NCBI GenBank assembly: GCA_963832055.1
Contig: CAWHST010000004.1
Coordinates: 454,409-518,408, forward strand
Reading direction: 5' to 3'
DNA: 64,000 nt
DNA from: an uncultured Gemmatimonadales bacterium
Lineage (GTDB): Bacteria > Gemmatimonadota > Gemmatimonadetes > Gemmatimonadales > GWC2-71-9
Part shown: positions 23,874-45,808 of the stretch, in pieces
How the letters are laid out: each line of letters starts with the position of its first letter
How positions within the stretch are numbered: the stretch's first letter is position 1
Program-made: the position numbers and the translations under genes
The notes under the pieces: model-generated
What the model saw: only the letters and a program-made list of their open reading frames with translations
Databases searched by the model: none
Told to the model about the DNA's origin: nothing

Positions 23874-24956
23874 CTATCTCCCTCGCCGCACCCGCGCGAT
23901 CGACCGCAGGTGCTCGTCGTAGGTCTTGGAGAACACATGCCGTCCGTCCGGCCCCGCCACGAAATAGAGGTAGGGCACCTTCGCTGGATGGAGCGAGGCC
24001 TCGAGGCTCCGCCGGCTGGGTGAGTTCACCGGCCCCGGCGGCAAGCCCCGGTTGAGGTAGGTGTTGTACGGCGACCGGAACTGATAGTCTCTGGTGAAGA
24101 GCCTGGGCTTGCGCTTTCCGGTGGCGAGGAAGATCGCGTACTGCACCGTCGGGTCGGCCTGCAGCGCCATCCCGATGCGAAGCCGGTTGTGGTAGACCCC
24201 GGCGATCGTTTCGCGCTCGTCATCGGCCCGCGCCTCGCCTTCCACGATCGAGGCGAAGGTGACCAGCTGCGCCGGGGTCCAGCCCAGGGAATCGAGGCGC
24301 CGGTCCCACTCGGGCTTCCAGGCCGACTTGAATCCCTCGGCCATCACCCGCACCAGCTCCGGCGCCGTCGTTCCCAGCCGGAGCGAGTAGGTCTCCGGCC
24401 GGAGGAATCCCTCGAACGAACGGACCGGAAAACCCAATGTCGCCGAGGCGGCGGCGCTGTCTCGCGCGGCGGCCATCACCGAGTCGGCCGGTATCCCAAG
24501 CTTCTGTTGCGCCAGCGCCGAAACCTCGGGAATGGTGAGGCCCTCGGGGACCGTGAACCGGGTCGCCACCTCGTCGCCCGCCTCGAGGATATCGAGCACT
24601 TTCCAGACGGAGATTCCGGGGGTGAACTGGTACACTCCCGCCCGCACCGAGCGGTCGGCGCCCCGCACCCGGGCGATCAACTTGAACCAGAAGCGGCTCC
24701 TGACGACGCCGTGGGCGGCCAGCGTGTCAGTCACCGCCGAGAAAGTCGCACCGGGCGGGAGGGTGACCCGTTCGGCGGAGGAGTTGCTGCCGCAGGCGAG
24801 GAGGGTGAGGGTGAGAAGGAAGCACAGGGCGGACGGGCGGACGGGCGGACGGGCGGAACCAAGGGCCGCTACCGAACCTTGCTCCGGGCATCGGGCACCG
24901 TCCGTCCGTCCGCCCGTCCGCCCGTCCGCCCTACCGGTCACGCACCCGCCTGGCAT
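23874..24956 (-). CDS. mltG: Endolytic murein transglycosylase MltG (YceG-like)
   Basis: ...AGVYQFTPGISVWKVLDIL...FTVPEGLT...GFLRPETY...LVTFASIVEGEA...IAGVYHNRLRIGMALQADPTVQY...SPYNTYLNRGLPPGPVNSP...YLYFVA. The start is uncertain (ATG 24956 or GTG 24941), and the N-terminus is read through palindromic element B1. Confidence 0.88.
   Translation of the reverse strand: MPGGCVTGRADGRTGGRTDGARCPEQGSVAALGSARPPVRPSALCFLLTLTLLACGSNSSAERVTLPPGATFSAVTDTLAAHGVVRSRFWFKLIARVRGADRSVRAGVYQFTPGISVWKVLDILEAGDEVATRFTVPEGLTIPEVSALAQQKLGIPADSVMAAARDSAAASATLGFPVRSFEGFLRPETYSLRLGTTAPELVRVMAEGFKSAWKPEWDRRLDSLGWTPAQLVTFASIVEGEARADDERETIAGVYHNRLRIGMALQADPTVQYAIFLATGKRKPRLFTRDYQFRSPYNTYLNRGLPPGPVNSPSRRSLEASLHPAKVPYLYFVAGPDGRHVFSKTYDEHLRSIARVRRGR
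24827..24931. repeat. REP-like palindromic element, family B copy 1 ((GGACGGGC)n arm / ~40-nt loop / (GCCCGTCC)n arm)
   Basis: GGGCGGACGGGCGGACGGGCGGACGGGCGGA occupies 24827-24857. CCGTCCGTCCGTCCGCCCGTCCGCCCGTCCGCCC occupies 24898-24931. At least 24 nt of the two arms are perfectly complementary. Confidence 0.7.
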
Positions 24957-25374
24957 CCAGGAAATGCTGCAGCAGCACCGCGGCCGCCAGTGAATCCACG
25001 TCGGCTTTCCGGCCCCGAGTACTGCCGCCCTGCTCGCGAATAGCGGCGAGCGCCCGCGCGGTGCTCATCCGCTCGTCCCACAGCTCGACCGGGAGCCCGC
25101 TCTTGCCGGCCAGGCCGCCGGCGAGCTCGCGGGCGGCGACGGCGCTCTCCTCCTCGTCACCCTCACCGGTCAGCGGCAAGCCCACCACTAGGCCGGACGG
25201 CTCGTGCAGCGCGATCAGCTCGAGGAATCTCGACATGGGAAAGCGCTTGCCCCGCCGGCGGACCAGCGTCTCCAGCGGCGTGGCCAGGGTTTGAGTCTCG
25301 TCGCTGAGCGCCAGGCCGATCCGGACCTCGCCCCAGTCGACCGCCAGAATCCGGCCCTCCACGGGAAGTGGCAT
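24931..25374 (-). CDS. ruvX: Putative pre-16S rRNA nuclease / Holliday junction resolvase-like YqgF
   Basis: MPLPVEGRILAVDWGEVRIGLALSDE...GLVVGLPL...DERMSTARA. Track ORF 24931..25449 over-extends into palindrome A2. Confidence 0.88.
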   Translation of the reverse strand: MPLPVEGRILAVDWGEVRIGLALSDETQTLATPLETLVRRRGKRFPMSRFLELIALHEPSGLVVGLPLTGEGDEEESAVAARELAGGLAGKSGLPVELWDERMSTARALAAIREQGGSTRGRKADVDSLAAAVLLQHFLDARRVRDR

Positions 25375-25387
25375 CCGGGGAATAAAG

Positions 25388-25466
25388 CGGGAAAGGTGAA
25401 CCGTGAACAGTAAAAGGGGGTCGCAGGACGACCCCCCTTCACCGTTCACCGTTCACTTTTCCCGCT
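25388..25466. repeat. REP-like palindromic element, family A copy 2 (GTGAACN heptad arms, imperfect)
   Basis: GCGGGAAAGGTGAACCGTGAACAGTAAAAGGGGGTCG / CAGGA / CGACCCCCCTTCACCGTTCACCGTTCACTTTTCCCGC, with ~5 arm mismatches. It begins 5 nt after the rho stop (25471) and lies ahead of the ruvX start (25374). Confidence 0.65.
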
Positions 25467-45200: not shown

Positions 45201-45663
45201 GACGGCGCTGTTCCTCCACCGCGTCACCGCCCGCCTCCCCGACGGCAAGCGCCGCATGCTGGAGCAGCTCCACCGCACCGACCCGACGCTCAGCGGGCGC
45301 AAGGTCCTGATCGTGGACGACGACGTCCGCAACATCTTCGCGCTCACCACCTTCCTCGAGCGCAGCGAGATGCAGGTGTCCTACGCGGAGAGCGGACAGG
45401 AGGGCATCGCGCGGCTGCAGGAGACTGGGGACATCGACATCGTCCTGATGGACGTGATGATGCCGGAGATGGACGGCTACGAGACCATGCGCGCCATCCG
45501 GGAGCACGCCCGGTTCCGGCAGCTCCCCATCATCGCCGTCACCGCCAAGGCCATGAAGGGCGACCGTGAGAAATGCATCGAGGCCGGCGCGTCGGACTAC
45601 ATCGCCAAGCCGGTGGACATGGACCAACTGCTGTCGCTGCTGAGAGTATGGCTGTACCGATGA
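39255..45663 (+). CDS. Giant poly-HAMP hybrid histidine kinase (~25 HAMP - GAF - coiled coil - HisKA - HATPase_c - 3x REC); single frameshift at ~42846
   Basis: Track ORF 39165..45569 is valid up to ...[13 protein letters not shown] 42859..45663 begins [23 protein letters not shown]. Removing one base at ~42846 joins them as ...[14 protein letters not shown]... Downstream are GAF ([10 protein letters not shown]...GEGLVGQC...), a Q/E/K-rich coiled coil, the H-box [16 protein letters not shown], the N-box [13 protein letters not shown]-boxes DTGIGIP / [10 protein letters not shown], and three receivers (ILLIAEDD..., LLVVEDDE..., VLIVDDDV...[10 protein letters not shown]). An alternative GTG start is at 39165. 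Confidence 0.9.
39378..42800 (+). repeat. In-frame tandem repeat array, period 276 nt (92 aa = di-HAMP unit), ~12.5 units
   Basis: The unit [92 protein letters not shown] starts at 39945, 40221, 40497, 40773, 41049, 41325, 41601, 41877, 42153 and 42429, exactly 276 nt apart. Divergent units lie at both ends (39378, 39669, 42705). Confidence 0.92.
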
Positions 45664-45664
45664 C

Positions 45665-45808
45665 GGCGGACGGGCGGGCGGACGGGCGGACGGGCGGACA
45701 GGCGGACGGGCCGGGAATCATGGACGGCAACGGAGTGCTGGGCGAGATGGCAGCCCAGGCGCCAGCCGACCCGCTGTCCGCCCGTCCGTCCGTCCGCCCG
45801 TCCGCCCC
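45665..45808. repeat. REP-like palindromic element, family B copy 2
   Basis: GGCGGACGGGCGGGCGGACGGGCGGACGGGCGGACAGGCGGACGGGCC (45665-45712), a ~58-nt loop, then CCGCTGTCCGCCCGTCCGTCCGTCCGCCCGTCCGCCCC (45771-45808). It starts 2 nt after the poly-HAMP kinase stop. The loop holds the ATG (45720) of the next gene. Confidence 0.7.

Follow-up and report, generated by a model that had tools for sequence, protein, structure and literature searches.

The window analysed here is a 64,000-nucleotide stretch of DNA from an uncultured Gemmatimonadales bacterium (GenBank assembly GCA_963832055.1, contig CAWHST010000004.1, positions 454,409 to 518,408), and our subject is a palindromic element, family B, that lies twice in it at the junction between consecutive genes. 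A first-pass annotation of the same DNA had proposed both copies, and both are confirmed as long palindromes. Copy 1 (24826..24932) separates ruvX from mltG on the minus strand. Read on the plus strand, it consists of a G arm at 24826-24857, a loop at 24858-24900 and a C arm at 24901-24932; on the mRNA (minus) strand it is 24932-24901 that reads as the G arm. The two arms, 32 nt each, are 97% complementary around a 43-nt loop, and the RNA is predicted to fold at -90.6 kcal/mol (z-score -7.8). Copy 2 (45665..45808) lies between two sensor kinase genes on the plus strand, with a G arm at 45665-45713, a loop at 45714-45765 and a C arm at 45766-45808. Its matched arms (45668-45709 and 45766-45807) are 42 nt long and 86% complementary, its loop measures 56-68 nt depending on the pairing register, and its predicted fold reaches -114 kcal/mol (z-score -8.1).

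The arms of both copies are of one type, (GGRC)n / GGGCGGAC: Tandem Repeats Finder resolves them as 8-base repeats of GGGCGGAC and its complement. The octamer arms of the earlier description thus stand as a period of eight, but the basic repeat at finer grain is an alternation of GGRC tetramers. The 18-mer GGACGGGCGGACGGGCGG, with up to 3 mismatches allowed, occurs 16 times in the window where 1.2 occurrences are expected, and 15 of these fall within copies 1 and 2. Single 8-base units are not enriched outside the elements, and on this ground a scattered uptake, Chi or KOPS-like 8-mer was rejected. The loops of the two copies are unrelated to each other. The first-pass remark that both copies have the same polarity relative to transcription is uninformative, because any palindrome whose 5' arm is G-rich shows its G arm first whichever strand is read, and the unrelated loops supply no further landmark.

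Two genes meet at each copy with almost no room between them, the element beginning 0-1 nt past the stop codon of the upstream gene. At copy 1, the TAG stop of ruvX (24931..24933, minus strand; PF03652 RuvX) directly adjoins the arm, as had been claimed; ruvX itself occupies 24931..25374, with ATG 25374 as its probable start and a mechanical open reading frame (ORF) extending to 25449. The mltG (YceG) ORF runs from 24941 down to 23874 on the same strand. Its likeliest start is the GTG at 24939..24941, which gives an 11-nt overlap with the 3' end of ruvX; the ATG at 24954-24956, also in frame, is an alternative. The element makes up codons 5-38, and a lipoprotein signal peptide (LCFLLTLTLLAC) comes after it. 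The GTG and the ATG are, as the annotation had it, the sole starts that keep the signal peptide, and for this reason the whole copy 1 hairpin is most probably translated.

At copy 2, the two genes share an ATGA overlap (45660..45663, plus strand) in which the TGA of a poly-HAMP hybrid kinase (45661-45663) is interlocked with an in-frame ATG (45660-45662) of a REC-HisKA-HATPase kinase, hereafter the REC-kinase. The REC-kinase ORF extends over 45660..46964, the element supplying residues 2-50 and the receiver domain (VNILLVDD) beginning at 45810. The start proposed earlier, ATG 45720, does lie in the loop, together with a second candidate at ATG 45747, but it is not the sole option, since ATG 45660 and a conserved in-frame ATG at 45648..45650 (MAVPV...) stand upstream. 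The two copies do yield nearly the same N-terminal peptide, GSARPPVRPSAL and LSARPSVRPSAP, and the C arm does lie within the downstream reading frame; comparison with relatives adds that the entire element is in frame, not the C arm alone. Alignment of the junctions shows that each window copy was inserted in frame directly after a start codon overlapping the stop of the upstream gene, and at both sites the whole hairpin probably lies inside the downstream ORF.

The upstream kinase at copy 2, whose 3' part occupies 42859..45663 and whose full ORF begins near 39165 on the plus strand, has the Pfam architecture of a GAF-HisKA-HATPase-3xREC hybrid. Its poly-HAMP array is encoded by eleven tandem 276-nt units (88% matches) at 39741-42773.

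A repeat that shares only its arms

The distribution of the element was sought with an exact scan of 185,579 species genomes using the 18-mer; the counts below refer to the first 120 stretches listed and are lower bounds. Most comparison sequences (L numbers for loci, P numbers for proteins) are metagenome-assembled genomes (MAGs) or metagenome contigs, gene contexts in them come from a crude ORF caller based on third-codon-position GC content (GC3), and counts over orthologues are not independent owing to kinship.

Among the matches listed, 56 of 120 stretches come from Gemmatimonadota, drawn from 43 different MAGs, and the remainder mostly from Streptomyces, Kitasatospora and other high-GC taxa. 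For 24 of the 56 Gemmatimonadota arms, vs 2 of 61 arms from other taxa, an inverted partner lies no more than 250 nt away, so that paired family B copies appear essentially confined to Gemmatimonadota among these matches. The order of the arms is fixed. The arrangement 5'-G arm...C arm-3' occurs in 24 of 56 cases and the reverse in 0 of 55, again among the matches listed, and this handedness is independent of gene strand. Loops range from about 12 to about 200 nt and are unrelated from locus to locus, and the outer units are the best conserved, resembling terminal inverted repeats. The sequence comparisons show, then, that copies at different loci share their arms, in fixed order, and nothing else. 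Elements can also be nested: some loops hold a second palindromic element, and some B arms sit within the arms of another unit.

Several observations accompany this census. Many high-GC Actinobacteria (Streptomyces, Kitasatospora and others, at loci within L002-L120) have unpaired (GGACGGGC)n arrays, the longest of about 100 nt. A second palindromic repeat, GTCATCC(C/T)GAGCG.AGCGA(G/A)GGATC...GATCC.TCGCT.CGCTC(G/A)GGATGAC, is unrelated to family B and nests in B-element loops (L001 3830-3990, L031 1050-1150, L046 6899-6980, L071, L081 and L103; proteins P0005 and P0069). It has no Rfam match and, when gene-called, yields VIPSxARDL or SLAALGMT-type peptides. Finally, L001 contains at 3734-4051 a perfect palindrome of more than 318 nt whose flanks are still complementary, which is an inverted repeat of great length or else a fold-back artefact in the assembly of that MAG.

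Could such elements arise anew at each site? A (GGRC)n microsatellite might expand by slippage in GC-rich DNA and gain its inverted copy by replication template switching, with no movement between loci. The unpaired arrays of Actinobacteria fit such an origin, as do block-wise unit variants of the kind seen in L098 and L017, which are typical of slippage, and the one-armed and collapsed alleles described below; template switching, moreover, is a known source of hairpins and of their inversion (PMC8794818). Were the elements of local origin, however, both arm orders would be expected, and one order alone was found. Nor does it account for the recurrence of one unit at many unrelated loci within a genome and across the 43 MAGs, or for outer units that are the best conserved. 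The fixed arm order, the arms shared at unrelated loci and the conserved outer units together argue for spread by copying or descent, and we consider independent local origin quite unlikely.

Placement and coding properties

The first-pass annotation had supposed a genuine repeat family at junctions of stop codons and N-termini, and copies at many loci bear this out. A stop codon lies 0-7 nt ahead of the arm in at least 13 copies, namely both window copies, nine loci (L008, L039, L043, L046, L071, L076, L099, L114 and L117) and both ends of the L031 element. About 10 copies have the tetramer GTAG ahead of the arm, all of them at an adjoining TAG stop, and at two sites its G comes from an Arg CGG codon. 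TAG is found at only about a quarter of element ends and most ends are without GTAG; an enrichment of TAG or GTAG is suggested by these copies, but it is confounded by codon context and by orthologous sites.

Other copies lie elsewhere. Four, each checked against Pfam domains, continue the reading frame through a linker between two domains: Aldedh-[element]-Aldedh in two species, an FtsK linker before FtsK_alpha, and the stretch from 2-oxogl_dehyd_N to the 2-oxoacid_dh catalytic domain. One copy lies between divergent genes, there are copies between convergent genes too, and some are truly intergenic, with the downstream ATG after the C arm. The B unit has no stop codon in any of its six frames, and because the repeat period is 8 each arm encodes the same cyclic peptide in all three of its frames, ADGRTGGR for the G arm and VRPSARPP for the C arm. 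As mapped on the available contigs, the copies are shown to sit where extra sequence is tolerated: behind stops, at stop/start overlaps, in inter-domain linkers and inside other palindromes. We argue that this placement reflects the survivors of selection, that is, positions where a stop-free, disorder-encoding insert would be harmless.

The aldehyde dehydrogenase loci merit separate mention. At L035 2595-5036 and L097 4292-6802, two aldehyde dehydrogenase domains form one ORF through the stop-free B element, which may have fused two neighbouring genes.

The two junctions in related genomes

The adjacency of ruvX and mltG is kept in 67 of 67 loci that have both genes (the window and 66 metagenome loci). 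In distant relatives, the mltG start lies over the ruvX stop as ATGA or GTGA and is followed by a short lipoprotein signal peptide. The clade of the window has the geometry GTGnnnnnTAGG, its GTGnnnnnTAG being common to the window, L201, L202, L205, L121 and L122. Within this group, L201, whose MltG is about 90% identical, presents an empty site: it reads GTGCGCGCTAGG|CCGGTCCTC (in short form GTGCGCGCTAGG|CCGGTC), where the window at the same breakpoint reads GTGACCGGTAGG|[34 codons]|CTGTGC, an in-frame insertion at exactly the same point. No target-site duplication is present in this empty/occupied pair. L202 has a collapsed site with just two GGCGGAAC units (21 nt), and L121 carries a complete hairpin with GGCGGAAC arms that starts at the same first base as the window element. 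More distant lineages have hairpins of AGTTCCA or GGAGACG heptamers at the ruvX-mltG site, and every one of them keeps the frame of the overlapping start. A tree of 120 MltG sequences does not separate the unit types, which are mixed across it, and hybrid arms were found in P0010 and L116.

Two further kinds of repeat occur near mltG. In L127, L128, L133, L134, L135 and L138 the ruvX-mltG gap contains C-rich 9-nt repeats (YTCCGCCCT) with no G-arm partner. Read as (LSA)n, these repeats form the hydrophobic core of the MltG signal peptide, and they could be domesticated remains of C arms. Hairpins with (GGGCAGCG)n arms lie just 3' of the mltG stop in the related metagenome loci L127 (1102-1208), L133 (2161-2272) and L141 (4588-4688), and their C arm explains the RCPAAP peptides in the MltG or kinase N-termini of P0023, P0029, P0075 and P0126.

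The kinase junction is known from 118 REC-kinase orthologues (86-99% identical), nearly all of which have an element-derived N-terminal extension built from one of several unit types. The MAVPV start is the one called in 44 of the 118, with 26 different extension lengths, and in at least 77 of the 118 the called ORF takes in the G arm or begins upstream of it. Five copy 2 junctions were checked in the DNA (window, L008, L204, L206 and L208), and all are in frame from the overlapping start; L204 and L206 also have the ATGA overlap of the window, L206 retains a G arm only, and L208 has no tandem arms and a 72-nt spacer. That the frame holds through this many changes of length would be difficult to understand if translation did not begin ahead of the element, although no formal probability can be attached to it because the orthologues are phylogenetically related.

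Turnover between close relatives

The element changes faster than the DNA around it. Over 5.2 kb of flanking sequence L205 and the window are 96.3% identical, and yet L205 carries copy 1 inverted whole, with 92% identity when aligned inverted vs 54% loop identity when aligned directly; the arm imperfections move along with the inversion, and the loop is stop-free in both orientations. L204 is 96.2% identical to the window over 21.3 kb, and copy 2 is the divergence maximum of this entire alignment, with 120-nt windows that are 47-50% identical. Its copy 2 arms are GGCGGAAC/GGCGGGAC, the C arm decayed. Inversion was rejected for this pair, as neither orientation aligns well, which leaves real replacement or decay. 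The MltG of the L204 genome, sought as a test of genome-specific unit types, was not found in the P0001 cluster. Overall, alignments of close relatives show turnover by whole-element inversion, arm loss, collapse to two units, change of unit type and empty sites. Recurrence of the element at the same junctions in the independent assemblies L205, L204, L008 and L206 also excludes the assembly artefact that the first-pass annotation had considered.

The next-lowest region of the L204 alignment is a 36-nt hairpin indel directly after the REC-kinase stop. This hairpin (GTGAACG...CGTTCAAC inside GGCCGG...CCGGCC) lies at L204 11312-11347, 12 nt past the stop, and is absent at window 46973; it is flanked by a 5-nt direct repeat, CCGGC, and represents either a recent insertion or a deletion.

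RNA structure and regulation

A hairpin of this stability at an operon junction might be a dedicated cis-regulatory RNA, its stem selected for translational coupling, for processing by RNase III or another route, or for mRNA stabilisation between operon genes. The exact stop/start-overlap position of both window copies and several others fits such a role, as do the very stable stems, the reading frame upheld through the element, and the hairpin or at least the spacer kept in nearly all orthologues of the copy 2 junction; in E. coli, REPs (repetitive extragenic palindromes) no more than about 15 nt from a stop reportedly affect translation of the upstream gene (Liang, Rudd and Deutscher, in 2015). 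Against it stand the empty, collapsed and one-armed sites of relatives (L201, L202 and L206), elements flipped whole or about 50% identical between genomes about 96% identical in DNA, and the presence of the same arms in protein linkers and between convergent or divergent genes. The mismatches in the stems point the same way: across 23 elements with known transcription direction, 16 are G-U compatible on the sense strand vs 24 on the antisense strand, and with no sense-strand excess there is no sign of selection on the sense RNA. Neither the window nor any of 8 related loci matched an Rfam 15 family at the gathering score; all that appeared, below threshold, were resemblances to miRNA precursors of eukaryotes. 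Because of the empty, collapsed and one-armed alleles, the flip and the mixed contexts, we do not take the element for a purpose-built regulator, and we regard selection for such a role as unlikely; control of translational coupling or mRNA processing as its purpose, suggested in the first-pass annotation, is unproven.

The same annotation had read the G-rich strands as canonical quadruplexes, and a G-quadruplex or i-motif that competes with the hairpin would make the element a switch of gene expression. A canonical four-G3 motif is indeed present on the plus strand of both copies, but in copy 1 this is antisense to the mRNA, whose own arm at ruvX-mltG has only three G3 tracts, and the first spacer of the copy 2 motif measures 1 nt instead of 5. 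When the RNA was folded with and without quadruplex energies, as had been suggested, the hairpin remained the minimum-energy fold, more than 70 kcal/mol better than the G arm folded alone (-10 to -21 vs -90 to -116 kcal/mol). The sister families that occupy these sites are built from units lacking G3 tracts, for example GGCGGAAC, GTGAACG and AGTTCCA. The alternative fold is therefore not supported, and we think a quadruplex switch very improbable.

An intrinsic terminator or attenuator between the genes is scarcely credible either. It would be suggested by a GC-rich hairpin past a stop codon, and by the related hairpin between rho and ruvX described below, in which an inner hairpin is followed by TTTT. 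The B copies have no T-run and loops of 43-68 nt, on which grounds a terminator was rejected for them; no terminator-like or promoter-like site was called at copies 1 and 2, the downstream genes begin at overlapping codons with no promoter-like site of their own, and copies also occur within ORFs.

A wider set of tandem-arm hairpins

Family B is one member of a larger set of hairpins with tandem arms of 7- or 8-base units. A search for hairpins with arms of tandemly repeated 6-10-nt units yielded 3 in the window, to which a family A copy between rho and ruvX was added by eye. It also yielded 36 from Gemmatimonadota loci (398 kb), 18 from metagenome loci selected by MltG (333 kb) and 2 from non-Gemmatimonadota loci (472 kb). 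The set comprises about 20 unit types, with the purine-rich arm first in most.

Family A has (GTGAACG)n arms, a type with TGA in every frame of the first arm. One copy lies at 25385..25465 between the stop of rho (25471-26910, minus strand, identified by Pfam) and the start of ruvX, folds at -67 kcal/mol (z -13.2), and has within it a GC hairpin, after which the transcribed strand reads TTTT. Successive junctions of one operon thus bear members of one wider hairpin set. A second family A hairpin, at 17117..17216 (-81 kcal/mol), supplies through its outer unit the TGA stop of a gene at 17206-17838 on the minus strand. The GTGAACG unit recurs in L109, L143 (twice), L145 and L175.

Discussion

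On balance, we lean modestly towards the view that family B is a non-autonomous palindromic DNA repeat specific to the Gemmatimonadota lineage, closest in architecture to REPINs (mobile REP doublets) and BIMEs and to eukaryotic foldback elements, and tolerated where its stop-free arms encode disordered peptide. Its design is two inverted arrays of a stop-free 8-base unit (GGGCGGAC, made of GGRC tetramers) around a loop of arbitrary sequence. The arms would spread between loci through a copying mechanism that makes no target-site duplication, and their likeness would be upheld by slippage together with arm-to-arm recombination or template switching. Consider a ribosome that reaches the end of ruvX or of the upstream kinase gene. 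It would read on through the hairpin, adding a disordered peptide (ADGRTGG...SARPPVRPSA) to the next protein. A stem of -90 to -115 kcal/mol in the mRNA at the stop/start overlap would, from general knowledge of coupling, block independent initiation, and translation of mltG and of the REC-kinase gene would then depend on ribosomes arriving from the upstream gene. Such translational coupling is plausible as a side effect of the element; it would be a by-product and not the element's reason.

Some of what we found weighs against a mobile repeat. With no target-site duplication at any of 28 copies and no conserved internal sequence among copies whose loops were compared between loci, we infer transposition rather than demonstrate it. 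The 28 copies have no common flanking motif either, and no transposase or RAYT (the REP-associated transposase) was found beside the copies examined, which lie on genome fragments, with no genome-wide search made. Loops can be aligned in some orthologous pairs (L005/L043 and L035/L097), an indication of long vertical persistence that fits a conserved function too, and nearly every orthologue of the copy 2 junction retains a hairpin or a spacer, so that this site could need one. In addition, the gene contexts at MAG loci depend on a simple GC3-based caller.

A bolder proposal, which we put forward tentatively and with some doubt, is that the wider set constitutes a previously undescribed bacterial class of foldback type in Gemmatimonadota, with microsatellite arms of 7- or 8-base units, dozens of unit types and a dedicated means of propagation that makes no target-site duplication. 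Propagation might rely on a hairpin-directed HUH-type enzyme, or on the addition of repeats where a palindrome breaks at its centre; either mechanism would account for a constant order of the arms, for nesting and for loops that are unrelated. Two designs could then be distinguished, units that are stop-free in six frames and can live in ORFs in either orientation, and GTGAACG-type units that would cap the upstream ORF. If this is true, such elements would rapidly vary the peptides at N-termini and in linkers, and would alter operon coupling from strain to strain.

Regardless of whether a wider class exists, if the picture of family B as a tolerated, non-autonomous repeat holds, an abundant soil phylum bears a distinctive repeat that is routinely part of essential proteins, including MltG, FtsK, 2-oxoglutarate dehydrogenase and sensor kinases. 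Strains that are about 96% identical in the DNA around the repeat differ in the repeat itself. Its copies could serve as natural strain-typing markers. Start codons, 'fusion' proteins and N-terminal extensions annotated in Gemmatimonadota MAGs would be shaped by such elements. They also bear on how palindromic DNA may spread without an obvious transposase, and they offer a natural test case of ribosomes that meet GC stems of 30-40 bp exactly at a stop/start overlap.

Comparison with known systems

The first-pass annotation had recognised no described family. We likewise found no literature description of such elements in Gemmatimonadota, no Rfam match, and clear departures from REPs and REPINs in unit, spacer and extragenic position and from MITEs (miniature inverted-repeat transposable elements) in target-site duplication and interior.

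REPINs and BIMEs (bacterial interspersed mosaic elements), REP doublets mobilised by RAYT proteins, are among the closest in architecture, since they too consist of two inverted units and a spacer that form a long hairpin, are multi-copy and vertically persistent, and show no target-site duplication. They often lie right after stops, the GTAG termini of REPs often supply the TAG, and some REPs lie inside ORFs (PMC3116915, PMC3733652). The REP or REPIN unit, however, is an imperfect palindrome of 20-40 nt with a conserved doublet spacer, whereas family B has non-palindromic tandem 8-mers and unrelated loops. REPs and REPINs have GTAG or CGTC at the foot of the stem, and family B seems to have no obligatory tag, TAG standing at only about a quarter of its ends. 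REPs are extragenic, whereas family B copies are in frame in the N-termini of MltG and the REC-kinase and in linkers of FtsK, Kgd-like and Aldedh proteins, and many of them are probably translated. And REPINs are mobilised by RAYTs, none of which turned up beside the family B copies examined, no genome-wide search having been made.

With MITEs, family B has in common terminal inverted repeats, in the form of inverted arms of 32-42 nt. It differs in having no target-site duplication (28 copies and the L201/window pair) and in its interior, which in MITEs is shared from a parent insertion sequence and in family B is non-homologous between loci.

In behaviour, there is a likeness to the Rickettsia palindromic elements (RPEs), which are about 100-150 bp long and lie in frame in unrelated, often essential genes, their peptide placed at tolerated positions (PMC10969869). 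Family B likewise inserts in frame into unrelated ORFs and keeps the frame, but the likeness is in behaviour only. RPE copies share their whole sequence and a conserved peptide and have no tandem sub-repeats, whereas family B copies share arms only; phylum and base composition differ too, and family B prefers linkers and N-termini at stop/start overlaps.

The flip of copy 1 recalls hairpin-loop inversion, in which a segment between short inverted repeats flips among close relatives, as described for plastid spacers and modelled for RNA hairpins (PMC8794818). Template-switch inversion of this kind is a mutational process that explains the flip, but not the arms shared at many loci or the fixed G..C order.

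The eukaryotic Foldback (FB) transposons have long terminal inverted repeats made of short tandem sub-repeats, with variable repeat number and a variable or absent central loop, and they are prone to inversion (compare PMC3169594). They are kilobase-sized elements of eukaryotes with target-site duplications and identified transposases, none of which is seen in family B, but arms built of sub-repeats are common to both.

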